Shown piece after piece: positions 3,629-41,675 of a stretch of DNA of 64,000 bases (within the stretch, counting starts at the first letter, position 1; the number at the start of each line of letters is the position of its first letter). The DNA lies in contig BK006942.2 of assembly GCA_000146045.2 (NCBI GenBank), forward strand, positions 352,001 through 416,000. Direction: 5' to 3'. Under the pieces are notes generated by a model, which saw nothing but the letters and a program-made list of their open reading frames with translations, ran no database searches and was not told where the DNA came from. The position numbers and the translations under genes are program-made. Source of the stretch: TPA_inf: Saccharomyces (Eukaryota).

Positions 3629-3746
3629 TTCACGTGAAAATTTTTATATTTTTAATTAAATTTTTATAATATTATAAATTATTATAATATTGATATTTAA
3701 AATTAAAAACAAATTATTAATGGTTTTGTTTTCCGAAATGTTTTTT
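3629..3746. other. CEN9: Point centromere CEN9: CDEI (TTCACGTG, 3629-3636), CDEII (~85 bp, >90% A+T, 3637-3721), CDEIII (TGGTTTTGTTTTCCGAAATGTTTTTT containing the invariant CCGAA core, ~3721-3746).
   Basis: Seen directly. RTCACRTG box, then an ~85 bp almost pure A/T stretch, then the TGTTT-TTCCGAA-A-rich CDEIII consensus. The tripartite architecture and spacing are diagnostic of budding-yeast point centromeres. It lies between YIL001W and SGN1 as expected. Confidence 0.9.
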
Positions 3747-18416: not shown

Positions 18417-18488
18417 TCCGATATAGTGTAACGGCTATCACATCACGCTTTCACCGTGGAGACCGGGGTTCGACTCCCCGTATCGGAG
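18417..18488 (+). tRNA. tE(UUC): tRNA-Glu, anticodon UUC, 72 nt, intronless.
   Basis: Sequence TCCGATATAGTGTAACGGCTATCACATCACGCTTTCACCGTGGAGACCGGGGTTCGACTCCCCGTATCGGAG matches yeast tRNA-Glu. It has a GTTCGACTCC T-arm (B box), an A-box-like GTGTAACGG, and a CTTTCAC anticodon loop. A T7 run at ~18503-18509 serves as the Pol III terminator. Confidence 0.93.
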
Positions 18489-28384: not shown

Positions 28385-29085
28385 AGCGACCCTGTAATGT
28401 TATGTTTCTAGCTAGGAACAGAAAGTGCCAGCTTTTTGAGCAGTTAAAGAGTAAAATGTTTATGTGGTTTCACGGACTTACATGTGAAAGACTAGCCTGG
28501 CGCTATCTAAATTCATGATGAAACTCGATGGCCCTTTCCATGGCACAAAAATCTTGACACATGGATGTGCGCGGCGGCGGTAACCGCACCAAGGAAAAAA
28601 GGGTCCAATGCCAAGAAATAATAAAACGGACCCTTTTTTCTTTTTTTTTGAAATAAAATTGAAAGAGAAATGCAAACACTTTTCAGGTTTGAAAAGAAAA
28701 GAAAACGTCAAGAATCTTACGCCAAAAGTGCCTAAGATTCAAGTATCTCTGAAAGGCGTACCATTTTCAACAAGGGGCATAGGTGGCCGCAAACTAGGAT
28801 AATTGACAACTTAGTTTCATATTGACAATGTCATCGCAATTGAGGAGATAGCCATAATTCGGGAGGGTACAAAACCTGACCTGCTAGTGTTCAACTAATG
28901 CATCATGGGTACTATAGAGAGCATTCTAGTGGTAGAAAAAAAAAAAAAAACAAACTTTAAACCGGGTAATATAAACTTCTCATATGGCTTTTCTCCAGGG
29001 AAAGAAAGGGAAGGGATACTTCAATGACGAAGGCTTAGATGACAAGCTAATACAGAAAGGGAAAGGAGCAGGGCATCGGAAGGAA

Positions 29086-32608: not shown

Positions 32609-33346
32609 ATGGCTCTACCTCTGATAAAACCTAAGGAGTCTGAGGAAAGCCACCTCGCTCTTTTGTCCAAGATCCACGTGTCCAAAAATTGGAAACTGCC
32701 TCCAAGGTTGCCCCATAGAGCAGCTCAGCGGAGGAAAAGAGTTCATCGACTTCACGAAGATTACGAAACTGAAGAAAATGATGAGGAGCTACAGAAGAAA
32801 AAACGGCAGAATAGAGACGCCCAAAGGGCCTACAGAGAACGCAAAAACAACAAGTTGCAAGTGCTGGAGGAAACCATAGAGTCACTGAGTAAGGTCGTTA
32901 AAAACTACGAAACGAAACTAAACCGCCTCCAAAATGAACTTCAAGCGAAAGAATCGGAAAATCATGCCCTTAAACAGAAATTGGAGACCCTTACTCTGAA
33001 ACAAGCCTCTGTGCCTGCTCAGGACCCTATCCTGCAGAATTTGATCGAGAATTTCAAACCAATGAAGGCGATACCTATTAAGTACAATACCGCTATCAAG
33101 CGCCACCAGCACTCGACAGAACTGCCTAGCTCTGTCAAATGCGGCTTTTGTAACGACAACACTACTTGCGTTTGTAAAGAACTGGAAACAGATCACCGTA
33201 AAAGTGACGACGGTGTGGCCACAGAACAGAAGGATATGTCGATGCCACATGCAGAGTGCAATAATAAAGATAACCCCAATGGGCTCTGTAGTAATTGTAC
33301 TAATATCGACAAATCATGTATCGACATCCGGTCCATCATCCACTGA
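32609..33346 (+). CDS. YAP5: bZIP (YAP-family) iron-responsive transcription factor Yap5, 245 aa.
   Basis: ORF 32609..33346. YAP-type basic region (RQNRDAQRAYRERKNNKLQ), leucine zipper, and a C-terminal Cys-rich domain (CGFCNDNTTCVC...CSNC) consistent with Fe-S sensing. Confidence 0.88.
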   Translation: MALPLIKPKESEESHLALLSKIHVSKNWKLPPRLPHRAAQRRKRVHRLHEDYETEENDEELQKKKRQNRDAQRAYRERKNNKLQVLEETIESLSKVVKNYETKLNRLQNELQAKESENHALKQKLETLTLKQASVPAQDPILQNLIENFKPMKAIPIKYNTAIKRHQHSTELPSSVKCGFCNDNTTCVCKELETDHRKSDDGVATEQKDMSMPHAECNNKDNPNGLCSNCTNIDKSCIDIRSIIH

Positions 33347-35143
33347 AGAGAGAGAACTTCTTAATACTTATAAATACGTCATTGAACAGCTCAACTTTTG
33401 TAACGTCAAAAGAACGCACATGAAAGGAGTGACATTGCTTTTTTCTTTGCAAGTTTATTACTGTGGTTATGTGTAAAGAATTAGTTCATGGACATTGGCC
33501 GCAGAGTGCAAAAGCGTTTTGGACACCCCGCCTTTGGTGTTCTCGCCGCCATATTTTGAGACGTTAGTTTCCGACGAATTGAGCTGAAGCGGTGGACATT
33601 ATCTCAAGGTACCGCTTACTATGCCTATACATTCCTGCAATTTTTTTTTTTTTTTTTTTGATAAGTATTACTGGGTAATGGGAAGTATAATCACTAGGCA
33701 TATTATTTTTGACGCAGAGGAGTGGCAGCCTGTCTACTATGTAAATGTAATGGTAGAACCGTTATTATAACGTAAAATAGATCGTACATAAGAAAAACTG
33801 GACGCAAACCATTTAAATCTAAATGCGAATATGCGTACTGATTATTAACATGATACCATAATTTAGATCTTTCCTTTTGAAAGTCGTGTCAAATTCTAGT
33901 ATTGGCGGATGAGATCCTAATGTGCTAAACAATAGAGATAATGGGATCCCCGCAAATTTCATTTTTAAATTGCTTTCCTCTTCTGAGTTGAACACGAATT
34001 TTTGAGAATCTAGCTGTAGTTAGACGTTACGCAAAAGAAGCTTTGGCGCAAGCAAATCTCCTTCCATACTGGTCTCCTTTACGGCTGTACGAACACTACC
34101 GTAGTGACAAACTGAAAAACGAGGATTTGGTGAGCAGTCTGGAACAGGTAGATGAATCATAAAGCGCAGCAACCATCCTCGAACTGATGACAGTACGACT
34201 TTTCTCCAAAATAGATATAAAGAAAGGCTGGTTATTCGTGGAGAGTTCAGTCCTCCGTATCTAACCTTGATGAATTAAAACTCAGGCCAGAACAATCTCT
34301 TTAACAGACCTCCATACATACTCTCGGAGCTATATTTTAGTGCGATCAAACTGCGAATAGAATAAAGCAGACGCAAGAGGCAAATTACAAACTCTTGCGC
34401 TTCCTTTTTAGCGAGCTTGTTAAAGTAGGGTCTGAACGAGAGGCTGTCACAATTGCGTTGCGTTATGCAAAGGATATAACACGGTGCTGAAGTTAAACTG
34501 TGAAACTATACAAGTGGAGGACCCTTTGAGTTTTCTGTAGATAAAAAGGAGAATGTTTCAGAAGAGCGTCAGAGATCTCGAATGACAGATCGGTGGCTAC
34601 CACGAAATCTTATAGGCGTTTCTCTGGGCTCCCTAGTTACGTATAGCGCTGACGTAGTTTAGAAGGGCGCGCGCATTTTTTCTATTGTTGCCTCTTTTCT
34701 CGCTAGCTGGCTTTTAGCATCATGTTCTGCGGATATTATTCTCCGCCCGGAAGGTTCGTGGAAGGCCTAGAATGAGATCTATCAATAACGCTACGCAGAT
34801 TTCTAATGTTACATGTCACGTCGATCTGACATATATCTCCGTCAGGTTCGATCCAGACTCTCTGCGCGCGTACCAAGAGCTTTTTGTTTCAATAGGAACG
34901 GAATTTCCTTTATTGAATGTGGCAACGAACTGCGGAGGGTTATTAGCTTCTTGACACTTTCTTCGTCCATTACGTAGACCTAACGTTGAAAAGGAGACCT
35001 CGAAGAAATTTTAACTCTTGGCACCTCAGAATAAACAAGGTCATCTAGTGCGATGGCAATGCTTCAAAGTAAATGGAGAATTTCGAAGGCTAGCGTCTCT
35101 AGATAAATCTCAGCCTAACCCTTTTACACGAAGTTTTCCCAAC

Positions 35144-35144
<1 letters not shown>

Positions 35145-35172
<28 letters not shown>
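35145..35172. repeat. Homopolymer A28 tract in the ORF-free region between YAP5 and FLO11. A (GAAAA)5 microsatellite follows at ~35286-35310.
   Basis: Direct reading. Confidence 0.9.
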
Positions 35173-35174
<2 letters not shown>

Positions 35175-37571
35175 AGGGCGGTTGTCTTTGGCATATCGCG
35201 AAAATAATAGATCTTATCAAGGGGTTTTTAAGTCATCCTCTGATTATTGGAAGTCATAATCACGTTCAATGGTGGGAGGCCTTCGGAAAAGAAAAGAAAA
35301 GAAAAGAAAATTTTCTCAATCTGAAACAGTCTCTTGTTTACGTTACACTGGCAATTTTAACGGCGAGACTCATCTGAAAAAAGCTATTCGACTTAGTCCT
35401 GTGTTTTTCATTACAGATAATCCTGATCAACGGGTGTACGTTTTTCCATTTTAGGTCAGTATCCTCCCTCTGTGTTTCAAACTAAGTATAAGCGCCCACC
35501 CTAATTCGCTCGTATCCTTGTGTCAACTTCTTTGCTGCTCTGCAGCTGTAAACAGTTTTTGCGATAAGCCTCACATATGTCAGTGCTGTAAATACCGGAA
35601 ATAGAAAGTCACTGTGGTCTGTACCCTCATTTGATTTACGCGGTTAGAAAAGTGGAAACTCTTTCTTAACCGTGTAAATCAAGTATGTCATTTCAGGAAA
35701 CTTCCTCAATTCTTGGCGTACTATATTGAGTTGCCAATGTATGAGAGTGGTCGATTTCAATCGGCAACATTCTATCTCGCAATTACGCAATAAAAATTGA
35801 CATGGTATGTTATTTTCATCCTTCGGATTTTTCAAACCATTCTGTTATAAGAGATATGTACCATCAATCGCCGACAGCGATACCCTCTTTAACCTCTAGT
35901 AAGAAGGACCCGGCACTTATTGTAATACGTTTAGGGGAAGTAGGTAAATCTGGACCGGTAATACGGCATAACGATCCATTTCGGACATCGGGGACATTTC
36001 TTTTTTTTCCTTTATTATTTTTTTTTTCTAATGTCCTTACGAATTTCAGGCTCTAACCTTATTTCTTATTAGGACGTGTACTCATTGCCATCGCAACAAT
36101 AAAAATAAAACATTAATAAAAAATTAATTAGAGCCTGTAACATAGAGATCAACGCTACTGTAGCGTTAGAAGGACAGTGAGAGAGTGGCATGACAATTAA
36201 AGTTTCTTCCGATTACTTCATGTCATCTGCATTACAAAGGAAGGAAAGATGTTTCGAATTATTTCCCCTTTAAGGTATTTTTGATGTGAAATTTGACCCC
36301 ATACTGTGAAAATCAACTGCTAAGAACTCTGTGATCTTCTAAGATAAAAAGGCGGGCCCCTTTTTTCTTCTATATCTATTTATTATCTAAATATGCTTAC
36401 ATAAGCAAAATATACCGGGGTAGTTAGTGCACGCGGGGAACTACCTCTTTCTTACCGGATCTTGCCGCATCCTTTTTTCTGTTCATTCTCAGAAAAAAGA
36501 GGCTTTTTTTCGTGAATACAGTCCGAAGAGCACTAGAATTTCGGACCGAAATTAGTAATATCTTCTGTACGAAAAAGGAAGACCCCTTTTCGTACAGAAG
36601 CCTTGGTCAATCAGAACAGGCAACGTTGTTTTTTCTACTCCGGAATTTTCTGAGCGAAGACAATCGGCCCTGAAGAGAGGATCAATCGTGGAAATCTACA
36701 TCGTCCTCAAGAATTTCTAACGAGACTTCATGTCAAAATTTAACTTTTTTAGCTTTTTTTTAAGGTTGGCCCGCCAAAATCGTAAGTCTCGGTGCTCTGT
36801 TTAGGAAATAAAGAAGAGAAACGTCACCTAAAAAGTTTAAATTGAAGATGTCGTTCTATCTCGCGAATCTTAAATGAAAGACAGAGTGGGTTGATGACAC
36901 TAGCGGACTTGTCATTAAATAACCCATGATATCTAGGCACATTAAGGTTAGCGTGGGGGGACGCGAATAATATAAGCATTACTCCAGTAAACTCACATAG
37001 AAAGAAGGAAATATTCTTTGTTCAAAGAGCAAAGGTGCCTGTAAAGATCCTCTTATTCATCAAAGCCTGGTCGAAGATTATTAGTTGTGCCAAGGCAATA
37101 TCAGGTTTATTAATCTTTTAGGAAAAATGTAAGGTTGTTACGTCTCTTTCCGTCTCGCGGAAAAACATTTTTACTCAAGCCGTCCGTGGGATGATTTTTG
37201 GTGGTTATCATTTTCCAAGACTCCAGACAAAAGAACGTGCAGGCGCTTGGCAAAAAGAAAAAAAAAAAAAGCGAGAGGGAAAAGTGGCGCGGTGCCAATA
37301 CTACCGGTACTTGTTCTTGAATAAGCTATCAGATGGTCAAAATAGGGCTAGAAGAAAAATGGTAAAATAAAGTAAAAAAAGGTAAAAGATAATTTTTGAA
37401 GAACTAAAAAATATGTAAATGAATATGTATTCTACGGGTAGTTTTCTGCCTTACAAAATTATGGCAGCGAAAACAGAATGGTGGAAGAAAGTAAAGAGGG
37501 TATCGAAATAATATCTTAATTTAAGAATGAAAACATCGTAATGAAGAAACGAACATGTTGGAATTGTATCA

Positions 37572-40500
37572 TTAGAATACAACTGGAAGAGCGAGTAGCA
37601 ACCACATAAAGTTTCCAAGAACCTTGATATTAGCAGCACCTTGGTAAGTACTCGAGATAGAAGGAACAGAGTATGTAGCGACTGCAGAACCAGAAGCAGA
37701 TTGTAGTGGACCAGTTAGAGATGGAGATGTGACAACGGGAGCCACGCTAGAAGCAGAAGCTGTTGTAGCTAGTTGGGATGTAGTCTTGATTGAAATAGGG
37801 TTGGTTGCTGTGGCCACAGTTTCGTAATTCTTGGCACCATTTGAACCTGGAATCAAAGTGGTTATGTAAGTGGTTGGGATGGACTTGGTTGTGTAACCAG
37901 TTGTTGTTTCGCCAGCGGAGTTAGTACCAACAGATGACTCAGTGGTAATAACTGTGGTTGGAATAGCCGTCGTGACAGGGGTGGTAGCCGAAGGTGCAGT
38001 GTTTTCGCCTGCGCTTGCAGAACTTACGATAGTCTTAGCAGAGCATACAGATGTAGTTTCACCGGCAGCGTTTGTAGCAGCAGAACATTCAGTAGTGGTT
38101 ATTGTAGTTGGTACGGCATTAGTGGCAGGAGTTACTGGTGCACTTGGAGCCAAAGTGGTTACATAGGTGGTTGGTACAGACTTTGTTGTGTAACCAGTTG
38201 TCGTCTTACCAGCGGAGTTAGTACCCGTAGAGGATTCAGTGGTAACAACGGTGGTTGTGACAGCTGTTGTAACAAGGGTGGTAGCTTCAGTAGTGTATTC
38301 GCCAGTACCAGTTGAACAAGGAACAGTGGTTGTGACAGTCTTTGGAGAGCATCCAGAGGTAGTTTCACCGGCAGAGTTTGTACCTGTAGAGCAAACCGTA
38401 GTAGTAATAGTGGTTGGGGTGAAATTGGTAACCGTAGTGACTGATGGAGTTGGAGCAATTGTGGTTAGGTAAGTGGTTGGAATGTTTTTGGTGACAAATG
38501 TAGTTGTAATTTCACCACCTGGTTTTGTACTAGTAGAATACTCAGTAGTAACGACGGTGGTTGAGACAACTGTAGTTACAGGTGTGGTAGGTGAAGTGGT
38601 TGTTGATTCCGAGGCGGTTTCGCTTGGACTGGTTGAACATGGAACAGTAGTTGTAATGGTCTTTGGAGAGCATCCAGAGGTAGTTTCACCGGCAGAGTTT
38701 GTTCCTGTAGAGCAAACTGTAGTAGTAATAGTGGTTGTTGATGATGTAGTGACAGAAGTCGTAGTTGTAGTTGGAACAGTAGTTGTAACGGTCTTTGGAG
38801 AGCATCCAGAGGTAGTTTCACCGGCAGAGTTTGTTCCTGTAGAGCAAACCGTAGTGGTAATAGTGGTTGTTGATGGTGTAGTGACAGAAGTCGTAGTTTT
38901 AGTTGGAACAATGGTAGTTTCGGTTGTAGAAGAAACAGAGGTTTCTGTTTGACTGCCAGGGTATTTGGATGATGATGGAGTGACAGTAGTGCCAGTAGAA
39001 AAGCTTTCAGTAGTAGAGCTGAATGGAATTGAAGATGGAGCGGAGGAAGTGATGTTGCTAGAGGAAGATGGGGTTGGTACTGGTGCTACAGAGCTTTCAG
39101 TGGTGGAGCTGGATACTGGAGCAGAAGAGCTTTCAGTAGTAGAGCTTGATGGGGTTGGTACTGGAACAGAAGAGCTTTCAGTGCTAGAGCTGAATGGGGT
39201 TGAAGATGGAGCGGAGGAAGTGATGTTGCTAGAGGAAGATGGGGTTGGTACTGGTGCTACAGAGCTTTCAGTAGTAGAGCTTGATGGGGTTGGTACTGGA
39301 GCAGAAGAGCTTTCGGTAGTAGAGCTGGATGGAGTTGGCACTGGAGCAGAAGAGCTTTCAGTAGTAGAGCTGGATGGAGTTGGTACTGGAGCAGAAGAGC
39401 TTTCAGTGGTAGAGCTGGTTACTGGAGCAGAAGAGCTTTCAGTAGTAGAGCTGGATGGAGTTGGTACTGGAGCAGAAGAGCTTTCAGTAGTAGAGCTGGA
39501 TGGAGTTGGTACTGGAGCAGAAGAGCTTTCAGTAGTAGAGCTGGATGGAGTTGGTACTGGAGCAGAAGAGCTTTCAGTGGTAGAGCTGGTTACTGGAGCA
39601 GAAGAGCTTTCAGTGGTAGAGCTGGTTACTGGAGCAGAAGAGCTTTCAGTAGTAGAGCTGGATGGAGTTGGTACTGGAGCAGAAGAGCTTTCAGTAGTAG
39701 AGCTGGATGGGGTTGGTACTGGAGCAGAAGAGCTTTCAGTAGTAGAGCTGGATGGAGTTGGTACTGGAGCAGAAGAGCTTTCAGTGGTAGAGCTGGTTAC
39801 TGGAGCAGAAGAGCTTTCAGTAGTAGAGCTTGATGGGGTTGGAGCTGGAGCAGAAGAGCTTTCAGTAGTAGAGCTTGATGGAGTTGGTACTGGAGCAGAA
39901 GAGCTTTCAGTAGTAGAGCTTGATGGAGTTGGCACTGGAGCAGAAGAGCTTTCAGTGGTGGAGCTGGTTACTGGAGTAGAAGAGCTTTCAGTAGTAGAGC
40001 TGGATGGAGTTGGTACTGGAGCAGAAGAGCTTTCAGTGGTAGAGCTGGTTACTGGAGCAGAAGAGCTTTCAGTGGTGGAGCTTGATGGGGTTGGAGCTGG
40101 AGCAGAAGAGCTTTCAGTAGTAGAGCTGGATGGAGTTGGTACTGGAGCAGAAGAGCTTTCAGTGGTAGAGCTGGTTACTGGAGCAGAAGAGCTTTCAGTA
40201 GTAGAGCTGGATGGAGTTGGTACTGGAGCAGAAGAGCTTTCAGTGGTAGAGCTGGTTACTGGAGCAGAAGAGCTTTCAGTAGTAGAGCTGGATGGAGTTG
40301 GTACTGGAGCAGAAGAGCTTTCAGTGGTAGAGCTGGTTACTGGAGCAGAAGAGCTTTCAGTGGTAGAGCTGGTTACTGGAGCAGAAGAGCTTTCAGTGGT
40401 AGAGCTGGTTACTGGAGCAGAAGAGCTTTCAGTGGTAGAGCTGGTTACTGGAGCAGAAGAGCTTTCAGTAGTAGAGCTGGATGGAGTTGGTACTGGAGCA

Positions 40501-41675
40501 GAAGAGCTTTCAGTGGTAGAGCTGGTTACTGGAGCAGAAGAGCTTTCAGTGGTAGAGCTGGTTACTGGAGCAGAAGAGCTTTCAGTAGTAGAGCTTGATG
40601 GGGTTGGTACTGGAGCAGAAGAGCTTTCAGTGGTAGAGCTGGTTACTGGAGCAGAAGAGCTTTCAGTAGTAGAGCTGGATGGAGTTGGTACTGGAGCAGA
40701 AGAACTTTCAGTAGTAGAGCTTGATGGGGTTGGTACTGGAGTAGTAGTCTTCTTAGTGCATGTCTTAGATGTGGTAGTTTTCTTCTTTGTACATGGAGTG
40801 GTGTCGTGATGAGGAGGTGTAGGCTTTTCCTTTGTGCATGAGGTAGTGGTTGGGGGTGTAGGCTTTTCCTTAGTGCATGAGGTAGTGGTTGGTGTAGCAG
40901 GAGCGGTGGTTGATGATGATGTAGATGACTCGGAAGTGCTAGATGTAGTGGTAGATGACTCGGAAGTGCTAGATGTAGTGGTAGATGACTCGGAAGTGCT
41001 AGATGTAGTGGTAGATGACTCGGAAGTGCTAGATGTAGTGGTAGATGACTTCGTACCGCCACAATTATTGTCACAATCTATGTTCCAATAGAAGCCTGGG
41101 AAATCCGTTTGAGAGTGGCCTTGATTGTCATAGTTGTTACAACCAGTAGACAAATCAAAAGATGTAGTTCCCCATTGCCAGGAGCTTGCATATTGAGCGG
41201 CACTACCTTGCAAATACTCGAATTGAATTTGGAAGTTAGGCATCCACACCTGACAGCTGTTGACATCTTGTGTGGCATAAACTTCAAAAGTGGCTGTGAA
41301 ATCAGTTGGGTTGTCAATCAAATAGGTATTTTCGTTGTAACCGTATAGTTGGACGGTACCTTTTGGACCAGTGACACCAATGATTTTCAAAGACCATAGA
41401 TACTTCAGGTCAATATTTTCTTTACCTTTGACATGAATAGTGATTTGGTATGTGTTGTCTTGAACCCAAGAAACGGAAGTCACATCCAAAGTATACTGCA
41501 TGATATTTTGCTGGTCCATGTGCCAATTGAAGTCTAAGTTGGGACAGCCATTAACGATAGAATTACAGCTAGTTCCTTCGGAGGATCCTCTTGGAACTAG
41601 TGCAGTTGGAAAACCCAAAGCCGAGTTAAATAGAAGCGAAAGGACCAAATAAGCGAGTAGAAATGGTCTTTGCAT
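37572..41675 (-). CDS. FLO11: GPI-anchored cell-surface flocculin/adhesin Flo11 (Muc1), 1367 aa: signal peptide, N-terminal Flo11 adhesion domain, very long Ser/Thr-rich tandem-repeat stalk, C-terminal GPI signal.
   Basis: ORF 37572..41675 minus strand. N-terminus MQRPFLLAYLVLSLLFNSALG. Central ~1.8 kb of near-perfect tandem repeats encodes SSTTESSSAPVPTPS-type units. Hydrophobic C-terminus (NFMWLLLALPVVF) preceded by small residues, consistent with a GPI omega site. Confidence 0.95.
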   Translation of the reverse strand: MQRPFLLAYLVLSLLFNSALGFPTALVPRGSSEGTSCNSIVNGCPNLDFNWHMDQQNIMQYTLDVTSVSWVQDNTYQITIHVKGKENIDLKYLWSLKIIGVTGPKGTVQLYGYNENTYLIDNPTDFTATFEVYATQDVNSCQVWMPNFQIQFEYLQGSAAQYASSWQWGTTSFDLSTGCNNYDNQGHSQTDFPGFYWNIDCDNNCGGTKSSTTTSSTSESSTTTSSTSESSTTTSSTSESSTTTSSTSESSTSSSTTAPATPTTTSCTKEKPTPPTTTSCTKEKPTPPHHDTTPCTKKKTTTSKTCTKKTTTPVPTPSSSTTESSSAPVPTPSSSTTESSSAPVTSSTTESSSAPVPTPSSSTTESSSAPVTSSTTESSSAPVTSSTTESSSAPVPTPSSSTTESSSAPVTSSTTESSSAPVTSSTTESSSAPVTSSTTESSSAPVTSSTTESSSAPVPTPSSSTTESSSAPVTSSTTESSSAPVPTPSSSTTESSSAPVTSSTTESSSAPVPTPSSSTTESSSAPAPTPSSSTTESSSAPVTSSTTESSSAPVPTPSSSTTESSSTPVTSSTTESSSAPVPTPSSSTTESSSAPVPTPSSSTTESSSAPAPTPSSSTTESSSAPVTSSTTESSSAPVPTPSSSTTESSSAPVPTPSSSTTESSSAPVPTPSSSTTESSSAPVTSSTTESSSAPVTSSTTESSSAPVPTPSSSTTESSSAPVPTPSSSTTESSSAPVPTPSSSTTESSSAPVTSSTTESSSAPVPTPSSSTTESSSAPVPTPSSSTTESSSAPVPTPSSSTTESSVAPVPTPSSSSNITSSAPSSTPFSSSTESSSVPVPTPSSSTTESSSAPVSSSTTESSVAPVPTPSSSSNITSSAPSSIPFSSTTESFSTGTTVTPSSSKYPGSQTETSVSSTTETTIVPTKTTTSVTTPSTTTITTTVCSTGTNSAGETTSGCSPKTVTTTVPTTTTTSVTTSSTTTITTTVCSTGTNSAGETTSGCSPKTITTTVPCSTSPSETASESTTTSPTTPVTTVVSTTVVTTEYSTSTKPGGEITTTFVTKNIPTTYLTTIAPTPSVTTVTNFTPTTITTTVCSTGTNSAGETTSGCSPKTVTTTVPCSTGTGEYTTEATTLVTTAVTTTVVTTESSTGTNSAGKTTTGYTTKSVPTTYVTTLAPSAPVTPATNAVPTTITTTECSAATNAAGETTSVCSAKTIVSSASAGENTAPSATTPVTTAIPTTVITTESSVGTNSAGETTTGYTTKSIPTTYITTLIPGSNGAKNYETVATATNPISIKTTSQLATTASASSVAPVVTSPSLTGPLQSASGSAVATYSVPSISSTYQGAANIKVLGNFMWLLLALPVVF
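38950..40760. repeat. Coding minisatellite inside FLO11: dozens of head-to-tail copies of ~30- and ~45-nt units (…gcagaagagctttcagtagtagagctggatggagttggtactgga… on the + strand). Flanking shorter arrays sit at 40895-41050 (30 nt x4, coding SSTSESSTTT) and 38630-38900.
   Basis: Direct reading. The same 30-45 nt motif recurs almost perfectly across ~1.8 kb. This generates the long artefactual antisense ORF 38965..40809 in the track. Confidence 0.95.

Follow-up and report, generated by a model that had tools for sequence, protein, structure and literature searches.

Short inverted repeats of Saccharomyces cerevisiae are known to change by template switching, which homogenizes their arms and reversibly inverts their spacers (Abraham and Hazkani-Covo, 2021; PMC8604942). 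The same events have been found in promoters (Rozenfeld et al., 2026; PMC13100816). Template switching both creates and maintains hairpins (Monttinen and Loytynoja, 2022, PMC8794818; Loytynoja and Goldman, 2017, PMC5453318).

A hairpin located downstream of the FLO11 gene is a new instance of this known type of event, as it combines arm homogenization with spacer inversion, the published signature of template switching. Like the repeats of the two yeast studies, it combines perfect arms exceeding 9 bp with a spacer far shorter than 70 nt, and thus lies within the limits used there (arms of at least 9–10 bp, spacer of at most 70 nt; PMC8604942, PMC13100816). A multi-nucleotide change in one arm turned an imperfect into a perfect repeat, and strains with unchanged arms differ by an exact reverse complement of the spacer, the pattern by which template-switch-active repeats are recognized; the event looks recurrent or reversible. 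Those screens were directed at coding sequences and at 1 kb of upstream DNA per gene, whereas the hairpin lies in a 3′ intergenic spacer. Its inverted spacer measures 11 nt, compared with changes of 2–5 nt reported inside genes, and its two orientations are also split between species (S. paradoxus versus S. mikatae), which distinguishes it from the published yeast cases. With the cases of PMC8794818 and PMC5453318 it shares loop inversion with a retained stem and one-step mismatch repair, which give a 'compensatory' look without selection. Those cases, however, are functional RNA genes or organelle or human DNA, whereas the hairpin belongs to no known RNA gene and looks unconstrained. FLO11, YAP5 and YIR018 are unmentioned in the main text of PMC13100816, and FLO11 is unmentioned in that of PMC8604942.

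Our preferred reading, to which we assign a probability of roughly 0.7, is that this hairpin and a smaller palindrome next to it are non-coding inverted repeats in a fast-evolving intergenic stretch, with no demonstrable dedicated function, and that they most plausibly owe their present form to a DNA polymerase switching template between the two arms of a short quasi-palindrome.

Two palindromes downstream of FLO11

The window (the whole stretch of 64 kb that was analysed) is from chromosome IX of S. cerevisiae. By our mapping, adding 352,000 to a window position gives the chromosomal one, so that the first palindrome falls at 388,537–388,553 and the hairpin at 388,562–388,600. The gene coordinates put both palindromes 3′ of FLO11, about 970 bp past its stop codon, in agreement with the placement in an earlier note on this DNA. 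The nearest gene start, that of YIR018C-A, is 2.8 kb away, and a promoter-like block conserved throughout the genus (36668–37053) starts about 70 bp from the hairpin. Only short ORFs (up to 53 aa) overlap the palindrome site. Coding potential of a 51-aa ORF at 36824–36979 was rejected, its frame being broken by an 11-nt indel between species. The 11-bp ARS consensus WTTTAYRTTTW has six matches in the 64-kb window but none in 33346–37572, and identity as a replication origin was therefore rejected. No direct repeats were found in 36400–36700. The literature on YIR018C-A, on features downstream of FLO11 and on FLO11 antisense, SUT or XUT transcripts contained nothing on the palindrome interval, and that on FLO11 transcripts dealt only with the upstream ICR1/PWR1.

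Table 1. Inverted repeats in the intergenic region and the genes around them (positions within the window).
Feature	Position	Strand	Sequence or product	Basis or remark
YAP5	32609–33346			
YIR018C-A	33564–33701			
Overlapping A/T-run inverted repeats	36472–36517		CTTTTTTCTG / CAGAAAAAAG / CTTTTTTTCG	Inverted-repeat search and sequence
Third CCGAA-type half-site	36521–36527		GTCCGAA	Complementary to TTCGGAC at 36540–36546
First palindrome (8+1+8)	36537–36553		AATTTCGG-A-CCGAAATT	Sequence; inverted-repeat search
Hairpin, left arm	36562–36575		CTTCTGTACGAAAA	Sequence; inverted-repeat search
Hairpin, spacer	36576–36586		AGGAAGACCCC (11 nt)	Sequence; strain and species alignments
Hairpin, right arm	36587–36600		TTTTCGTACAGAAG	Sequence; inverted-repeat search
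FLO11	37572–41675	minus	1367 aa	

A sequence check revealed both structures exactly as the earlier note had described them: the first palindrome with 8-bp arms and a 1-nt spacer, and the hairpin with perfectly complementary 14-bp arms around an 11-nt loop. The first palindrome belongs to an unexceptional class: the window contains 13 palindromes that combine 8-bp arms with a spacer of at most 3 nt, compared with 5.05 ± 2.2 in shuffles. The exact string TTCGGNCCGAA occurs once in the 64-kb window, compared with 0.01 expected. The inverted triplets CGG (36542–36544) and CCG (36546–36548) are separated by a single nucleotide (N1 spacing). The half-site GTCCGAA provides an alternative pairing partner for the first palindrome and is used in minimum free energy folds of 36480–36610.

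The hairpin is the longest perfect inverted repeat with a loop of up to 30 nt in the window. A repeat of 14 bp was not reached in any of 200 dinucleotide-preserving shuffles of the window, and inverted repeats of at least 12 bp were observed twice, compared with 0.15 expected from the shuffles. From base composition we estimate about 0.016 such 14-bp repeats per 64 kb, which amounts to about three per 12-Mb genome; the hairpin is locally unusual, yet not unique genome-wide. If one A·C mismatch is allowed, the stem grows to 17 positions and the loop shrinks to 5 nt. On the minus strand this mismatch is a G·U pair, giving 17 consecutive pairs. For the RNA hairpin, the predicted free energies of the plus and minus strands are −21.2 (z −5.3) and −25.9 kcal/mol (z −6.9); for the DNA hairpin they are −14.5 and −15.8 kcal/mol.

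A search of the window for further copies of the hairpin arm (up to two mismatches) gave none above chance-level matches, and a metagenome scan returned two contigs only, both representing the same locus. As the hairpin is single-copy in the window and the metagenome matches are the same locus twice, the idea of a repeated element was rejected. The A7/T7-flanked segment which had been reported just upstream is present, with the correction that it consists of A6 (36493–36498), GAGGC and T7 (36504–36510). It is part of the A/T-run element, in which a perfect 10-bp inverted repeat (36472–81/36490–99) overlaps one that is 80% complementary (36485–99/36503–17). The run lengths of this element differ among strains, and the element is missing in S. 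paradoxus.

Spacer orientation and stem pairing among strains and species

The comparison took in 40 S. cerevisiae haplotypes, the relatives S. paradoxus and S. mikatae, and the more distant species S. kudriavzevii, S. arboricola, S. uvarum and S. eubayanus. The spacer occurs in both orientations within S. cerevisiae and between species. It is reverse-complemented in three S. cerevisiae assemblies, L009 (GCA_947369785.1), L014 (GCA_000977925.3) and L048 (GCA_947369885.1), where it reads AAAAGGGGTCTTCC(T)n, one edit from the reverse complement of S288C AAAAAGGAAGACCCCTTTT and 6–8 edits from the forward form. In four S. paradoxus-type loci it is two edits from the reverse complement and six from the forward form, whereas the S. 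mikatae spacer is three edits from the forward and eight from the reverse form. Since the flipped spacer is found in S. cerevisiae assemblies as well as in S. paradoxus, at least two flips have to be placed on the species tree. In L048, the flanks of which are L012-like on both sides, the inverted spacer points to a third independent flip or else to a conversion tract some tens of bp long.

The flip-prone spacer carries CCCCT/AGGGG and CTTCC/GGAAG motifs. The idea that L009 and L014 acquired the inverted spacer by introgression from S. paradoxus was rejected: both have S. cerevisiae-type arms and flanks, with 93% identity to S288C, compared with about 80% for S. paradoxus. As a control, the other long inverted repeat of the window (13-bp arms, 28594–28640) did not show inversion in about 45 loci. 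A further parallel are the 'minute inversions' at hairpins in chloroplast non-coding DNA.

Pairing of the stem is complete in S. cerevisiae (14/14), reaches 11/14 in S. paradoxus and 7/14 in S. mikatae, and the sequence is not alignable in the species beyond. Conservation in the sensu stricto species, which the earlier note had proposed to check, thus extends in part to an imperfect stem in the two nearest relatives but not farther; a perfect stem was found only in S. cerevisiae among the species compared. With S. mikatae as outgroup, three arm changes (36566 A>T, 36568 A>T and 36596 G>A) are placed on the branch leading to S. cerevisiae. Positions 36566 and 36568 are A in S. paradoxus and S. 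mikatae and T in S. cerevisiae, which created pairing, and 36596 G>A completes the pairing with 36566. Judged against S. paradoxus and S. mikatae as outgroups, these changes brought the S. cerevisiae stem from about 12/14 pairs to the full 14/14. Two of the changes are 2 nt apart in the left arm and one is in the right arm. A single point change and a subsequent arm-copying event would be the simplest history.

Among strains, all but one of the 40 S. cerevisiae-type loci carry the palindromes, so that the lack of conservation even among strains which the earlier note had associated with chance features is not observed. This retention is no stronger than that of flanking DNA. The left arm is invariant in all 39 loci that retain the region. 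Three different SNPs in the right arm break the stem, namely 36599 A>T (L022, L025), 36599 A>C (L027, L036) and 36597 G>A (L039), and are carried by 5 of the 40 haplotypes; in L045, 36586 C>T extends the stem to 17 bp. Two of the 28 arm positions segregate, compared with 202 of 1601 (12.6%) in the surrounding 1.6 kb. Across the species, the hairpin forms the least conserved 40 bp of the alignable region, with 2/40 invariant columns versus 14–17/40 just downstream. Among ten distinct sequences none of the 14 pairs of the helix has changed on both sides, all departures being unpaired cells, and the covariation score of the helix (0.013) is below the shuffled mean (0.030).

The first palindrome varies as well. 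For the pair 36539/36551, 22 sequences (the S288C type) have T/A and 15 have a T/C mismatch; L009 and L014, altered on either side of the pair, have C/G, and S. paradoxus has T/G. Position 36551, in the outer arm, accordingly has three alleles among S. cerevisiae strains. The 5+1+5 core TTCGG-N-CCGAA is identical in all S. cerevisiae haplotypes. It is kept in S. paradoxus with a different spacer base, and the palindrome is absent from S. mikatae, S. kudriavzevii, S. arboricola, S. uvarum and S. eubayanus. That the pair became perfect twice from T/G (as T/A and as C/G) is also the classical route of an RNA stem via a G·U intermediate.

One strain (L017) lacks 34507–37337, a deletion of 2.83 kb that includes both palindromes. 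Stem, spacer and neighbouring palindrome therefore tolerate polymorphism as well as complete deletion, and there is no sign of functional constraint on the hairpin. The deletion speaks for the proposal that the inverted repeat is a cruciform-forming fragile site which drives breakage and large rearrangements near the FLO11 repeats, as do the stable DNA hairpin that is predicted and the highly polymorphic flank. The breakpoints, however, are 2 kb and 0.7 kb from the hairpin, without microhomology or relation to it, and the deletion was therefore rejected as a hairpin product. High diversity spans all of the 1.6 kb rather than centring on the repeat. Moreover, marked fragility of yeast palindromes needs arms of about 100 bp or more with short spacers, as against 14 bp here. 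We consider a fragile site extremely improbable. Of the three roles suggested earlier, the fragile or recombinogenic cruciform is the only one to gain support, and a milder form of it survives, a structure-prone, rearranged repeat with a spacer that is inverted in some strains and in S. paradoxus; the term 'fragile site' does not.

Readings as protein site or RNA element

The Ppr1 site is TTCGG-N6-CCGAA and the Gal4 site CGG-N11-CCG. The first palindrome resembles both by its inverted CGG/CCG triplets, and its TTCGG/CCGAA half-sites are those of Ppr1; it differs by a spacer of 1 nt instead of 6 or 11, a non-promoter position and the lack of conservation beyond S. paradoxus. On the reading as a zinc-cluster site, TTCGG-A-CCGAA would be bound by a dimeric Zn2Cys6 factor and the hairpin arms would form a second dimer site in a putative regulatory region downstream of FLO11. 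In favour of such a site are the half-sites shared with Ppr1, the single occurrence of TTCGGNCCGAA, the core shared by all S. cerevisiae haplotypes and S. paradoxus, and the third CCGAA half-site at 36521–36527. But spacing defines the specificity of the dimers, and the triplet spacings known for zinc-cluster sites include N0, N4, N6, N10, N11 and larger. We know of no yeast zinc-cluster factor with CGG-N1-CCG spacing, and a full-text literature search for CGGNCCG, CGG-N1-CCG and similar terms found no paper using the motif. Thus, a CGG pair in defined orientation is present, but neither a known spacing nor conservation throughout Saccharomyces. The palindrome is already missing in S. mikatae, while the block 70–500 bp downstream is conserved genus-wide. 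It further has a triallelic position, lies behind FLO11 and far from the next gene start, is dispensable in one natural strain, and belongs to a size class that is common in the window. A Zn2Cys6 site is therefore very unlikely, and this part of the earlier note gained no support. By-eye comparison with consensus sites for Rgt1, Upc2/Ecm22 (SRE), SCB, HSE, Abf1, Reb1, Mig1, STRE, Gcr1 and Tec1 gave partial or single short chance-type matches only.

The hairpin had also been likened to a Rho-independent RNA structure. It shares the stem-loop with bacterial intrinsic terminators but is situated at a eukaryotic nuclear locus, its stem is AT-rich, with G-C at 5 of 14 pairs, and the full stem is followed by CCTTGGTC, not by a T-run. 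A scan for bacterial-type terminators and promoters gave artefactual sub-hairpins only, the 'T-run' being the other arm or the T7 run. With neither an Rfam match nor covariation, this comparison is not supported.

A more general possibility is that the hairpin, perhaps together with the first palindrome, is a selected stem-loop in a putative transcript downstream of FLO11, maybe started from the block 36668–37053, and that the perfecting and compensatory changes reflect selection for pairing. The predicted folds are indeed very stable on both strands, with 17 consecutive pairs including one G·U on the minus strand, and the genus-conserved block is close by. Every change on the S. cerevisiae lineage raises pairing, the L045 substitution lengthens the stem, and the pair 36539/36551 is T/A or C/G depending on the haplotype and T/G in S. 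paradoxus. However, none of the pairs in the 14-bp helix shows a two-sided change, S. paradoxus and S. mikatae have imperfect stems, and beyond these two species the sequence is unalignable. Stem-breaking SNPs segregate at the hairpin, the mismatch allele of the first palindrome is found in 15 of 39 sequences, and the loop sequence is not kept because it flips between strains. A scan of the whole window at Rfam gathering thresholds gave only the tRNA at 18417, and a permissive scan of 35800–37600 gave two matches of 18 and 20.5 bits (thresholds 245 and 44). The region is lost in one strain. To our knowledge S. cerevisiae is without RNAi, which we also count against a selected stem-loop. Taken together, we regard such an element as unlikely. 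Substrates of Rnt1p, the yeast RNase III, have a stem capped by an AGNN tetraloop; the loop here is AAGAC (plus strand) or GUCUU (minus strand), shows no AGNN on either strand and flips among strains, which makes the hairpin an improbable Rnt1p target.

It is conceivable, though in our judgement highly improbable, that template switching supplied a perfect RNA stem which is now tested by selection, hairpin and palindrome forming the 5′ or 3′ part of a putative transcript specific to S. cerevisiae and S. paradoxus and driven by the block 36668–37053. If true, a structured element of recent, de novo origin would lie beside FLO11, and the flip-prone spacer might contribute to strain differences in regulation of the FLO11 region.

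Template switching as probable origin of the palindromes

Template switching would account for arms and spacer by the same steps. While replication or repair synthesis leaves the region single-stranded, one arm could pair with the other (predicted DNA hairpin about −15 kcal/mol), and the nascent strand may briefly copy the wrong arm or strand and then switch back. Depending on the switch points, either one arm would be overwritten by the complement of the other, turning an imperfect into a perfect repeat (arm homogenization), or the spacer would be reverse-complemented with the arms unchanged (spacer inversion). The outcome in sequence is the same for template switching and for recombination between 14-bp arms; the former seems to us the probable molecular route.

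The perfecting of the arms must be seen in the light of ascertainment: the locus was chosen as perfect in S288C, and any imperfect ancestor then looks like 'perfecting'. For this reason the clustering of arm changes, a mark of template-switch-active repeats that is found here as well, is weak when taken alone. Three random substitutions perfect the stem with a probability of 1.7 × 10⁻⁴ per locus. We estimate about 2,000 repeats paired at 12/14 in the genome, of which about 0.5–1 would be perfected by plain point mutation. Given this ascertainment, spacer inversion is the only independent evidence.

These estimates also bear on the view that the two palindromes arose purely by chance in AT-rich intergenic DNA, without a special mutational process or function. 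About three perfect 14-bp repeats (loop up to 30 nt) are expected per yeast genome from base composition, random perfecting of one among the 12/14 repeats is not implausible, and the first palindrome belongs to a common class. Against this, exact reverse-complementation of the 11-nt spacer is beyond independent point mutations, requiring 6–8 edits compared with 1–2 for an inversion, and it is seen repeatedly, in three S. cerevisiae assemblies as well as S. paradoxus; 14 bp were also never reached in the window shuffles. Pure chance is thus distinctly unlikely.

With both spacer orientations present among strains and no support for a regulatory or RNA role, the palindromes look like by-products of slips in copying, and probably no protein or RNA function is attached to them. 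Knowledge of FLO11 regulation is unchanged by this result. For genome scans it provides a caution: a long perfect palindrome with stem-preserving changes is by itself no evidence of an RNA element or a dimer site. A second caution concerns variant callers, which will register a spacer flip as many neighbouring SNPs. The locus illustrates cleanly, in natural sequences, how short inverted repeats evolve: one mutational process yields a perfect 14-bp stem, apparently 'compensatory' changes and a cluster of differences over 11 nt, and function is not required. It extends the published yeast cases from coding regions and promoters to a 3′ intergenic spacer, where both orientations persist across species.

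Palindromes in the FLO11 3' flank

The two palindromes downstream of FLO11 are exact, as the earlier note gave them, and lie about 970 bp past the FLO11 stop codon, inside a 3.9-kb interval without an annotated gene. The window belongs to S. cerevisiae chrIX, at about 352,001-416,000, and a homologue search with its YAP5 gave Saccharomyces proteins. A literature search on this palindrome interval found nothing. Among perfect inverted repeats of the window whose loop is at most 30 nt, the hairpin has the longest arms, and its stem grows to 17 positions with a 5-nt loop if one mismatch is allowed. An arm length of 14 bp was reached in none of 200 dinucleotide-preserving shuffles of the window. 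From base composition, we estimate about 0.016 perfect 14-bp repeats per window and about three per genome; the hairpin is striking locally but not unique genome-wide. High stability is predicted for it both in RNA form (−21 and −26 kcal/mol; z −5.3 and −6.9) and in DNA form (−14.5 and −15.8 kcal/mol).

Features in and around the FLO11 3' flank and other inverted repeats (window coordinates)
Feature	Position	Strand	Description
FLO11	37572-41675	minus	ORF, 1367 aa
YAP5	32609-33346		245 aa
YIR018C-A	33564-33701		45 aa
tRNA-Glu	18417
First palindrome	36537-36553		8+1+8 inverted repeat; core TTCGGNCCGAA
Hairpin	36562-36575 / 36587-36600		perfect 14-bp arms enclosing AGGAAGACCCC
Conserved block	36668-37053		alignable in all seven Saccharomyces species
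Segment missing in S. paradoxus	36425-36494		about 70-100 bp
Inverted repeat	36418-36445		GGTAGTT ... AACTACC
Deletion in L017	34507-37337		2.83 kb
Control repeat	28594-28640		13-bp arms, GAAAAAAGGGTCC ... GGACCCTTTTTTC, 21-nt spacer; GAT4-YIR014W intergenic region
AT-rich palindrome	3668-3691		AATATTATAA-ATTA-TTATAATATT
ARS-consensus match	3642

The first palindrome belongs to a common class (13 in the window versus about five expected), and its exact core occurs once in the window. Its proposed role as a zinc-cluster site fails on spacing (N1), position and conservation; a literature search for a CGG-N1-CCG factor found none, and we know of no zinc-cluster factor with N1 spacing. The A/T runs of the 'A7/T7' element are present, but its actual form is A6-GAGGC-T7, which is part of additional, overlapping A/T-run inverted repeats. 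These are included in the segment just upstream of the palindromes that S. paradoxus lacks and that both S. cerevisiae and S. mikatae have. A replication origin was rejected, as the gap holding the palindromes has no ARS consensus match. Elsewhere in the window, the AT-rich palindrome and an ARS-consensus match coincide with what we take to be the position of CEN9 (about 3629-3745).

Variation among strains and species

Anchoring on YAP5 and the members of its cluster brought in the orthologous intervals of 40 S. cerevisiae-type loci, of S. paradoxus CBS432 with three further S. paradoxus-type loci, and of S. mikatae, S. kudriavzevii, S. arboricola, S. uvarum and S. eubayanus. Among these species, the hairpin region is alignable only in S. 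cerevisiae, S. paradoxus and S. mikatae. The 40 bp holding the hairpin contain two invariant columns in the seven-species alignment, versus 14-17 in windows just downstream, where the conserved block starts about 70 bp beyond the hairpin.

This block, 0.5-0.9 kb past the FLO11 stop, contains no annotated gene and no conserved ORF. Its motif-like conserved islands include CCAATCGTGGAAATCTACATC, ACGTCA (twice), TAAGGTTGGCCCGCC, CGTGGGGG and AGAAGAA-GGAATATTCT. The block resembles a promoter or regulatory region kept by selection of its sequence across the genus. Here S. cerevisiae stands apart from all the others in having an 11-nt deletion near 36919 and ATGTCA in place of ACGTCA near 36733.

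Within S. cerevisiae, the flank is unusually variable (35900-37500, orthologous loci L009 to L051). Across 1.6 kb, identity to S288C is no more than 94.6-99%, with 202 of the 1601 sites segregating in 39 sequences, a diversity which implies deep haplotype classes (S288C-like, L012-like and L009-like). Two assemblies labelled S. cerevisiae, L030 (GCA_000976965.3) and L031 (GCA_947370875.1), carry an S. paradoxus-type YAP5, 88% identical to that of the window, and an S. paradoxus-type hairpin region, consistent with an introgressed chrIX segment. A cluster of eight differences that separates the L009/L014 haplotype from S288C at 36423-36432 is flanked by the small GGTAGTT repeat and may be a second one of template-switch or indel-shift origin.

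S. cerevisiae is the only species with all 14 stem positions paired (11 of 14 in S. paradoxus, 7 of 14 in S. mikatae). When polarised against S. mikatae, the S. cerevisiae lineage has two left-arm changes, 36566 A>T and 36568 A>T, and one right-arm change, 36596 G>A; these brought the stem from 12/14 in the inferred ancestor to 14/14. SNPs that break the stem are of three kinds (36599 A>T, 36599 A>C and 36597 G>A) and are carried by 5 of the 40 haplotypes. One variant, 36586 C>T, makes the stem longer. Two of 28 arm sites segregate, versus the 202 of 1601 over the surrounding 1.6 kb; the stem enjoys no extra protection compared with flanking DNA. A formal pair count over ten distinct sequences found no pair changed on both sides. 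The hairpin may be a selected RNA structure, but this reading is opposed by the missing covariation and deep conservation, by the segregating stem-breaking alleles and the varying loop, and by the lack of an Rfam family match. A bacterial-type, Rho-independent-like terminator is inapplicable.

The pair 36539/36551 of the first palindrome is T/A in 22 sequences, T/C (a mismatch) in 15, C/G in two and T/G in S. paradoxus; it thus became perfect twice and was broken once. This palindrome is missing from S. mikatae and the more distant species.

The clean deletion in the S. cerevisiae assembly L017 (GCA_949124415.1) removes most of the YAP5-FLO11 spacer with both palindromes and the conserved block, and shows this strain to be able to dispense with them. 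Its junction shows no microhomology and its breakpoints are far from the hairpin, so the deletion is unrelated to it. The suggestion of a fragile cruciform is opposed by the arm length, sizes linked to fragility in yeast being far above 14 bp, and by the lack of any relation between this sole deletion and the repeat.

Spacer inversion and probable template switching

The S288C spacer is reverse-complemented in three S. cerevisiae assemblies, L009 (GCA_947369785.1), L014 (GCA_000977925.3), L048 (GCA_947369885.1), and in all S. paradoxus-type loci, the flipped forms being 1-2 edits from the reverse complement versus 6-8 from the forward form. The S. mikatae spacer has the S288C orientation, and at least two flips are needed on the species tree. 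Because both flanks of L048 match the common L012-type haplotype, its spacer stems either from an additional flip or from gene conversion over a very short tract. In the control repeat, which ranks second in length among the window's perfect inverted repeats, spacer inversion was found in none of about 45 loci. Unlike the FLO11 hairpin, this repeat is kept into S. paradoxus, and it is possibly the stronger candidate for a functional dimer site.

From these sequence comparisons, the form of the palindromes is best explained as the product of a known mutational mechanism, template switching at short inverted repeats. An exactly reverse-complemented spacer between unchanged arms is one part of the published signature of this process, clustered changes rendering one arm complementary to the other a second. 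Both have been seen in S. cerevisiae coding genes (Abraham and Hazkani-Covo, PMC8604942), and thousands of candidate events are reported up to 1 kb upstream of genes (Rozenfeld et al., PMC13100816). Neither screen covered the present locus; FLO11, YAP5 and YIR018 go unmentioned in the main text of PMC13100816, as does FLO11 in that of PMC8604942. The same process makes and maintains perfect hairpins, mimicking compensatory evolution (Monttinen and Loytynoja, PMC8794818).

Perfection of the stem by three random substitutions has P = 1.7e-4 per locus. With an estimated 2,000 or so repeats at 12/14 genome-wide, chance perfecting somewhere is possible. Choosing a repeat that is perfect today also ensures, in part, that its arm changes will run in a 'perfecting' direction. 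The independent evidence is the spacer inversion. Recombination between the 14-bp arms may have acted instead, the two processes being indistinguishable by sequence alone.

Given the published template-switch signature of spacer inversion and arm matching, the palindromes read as mutationally self-perpetuating structures in weakly constrained spacer rather than functional elements. The feature is genuine and, at the local scale, unusual, and as a known mechanism explains it best, it is a further instance of an already known kind of event. The main use of the locus is to illustrate this cleanly and to warn against inferring function from perfect palindromes.
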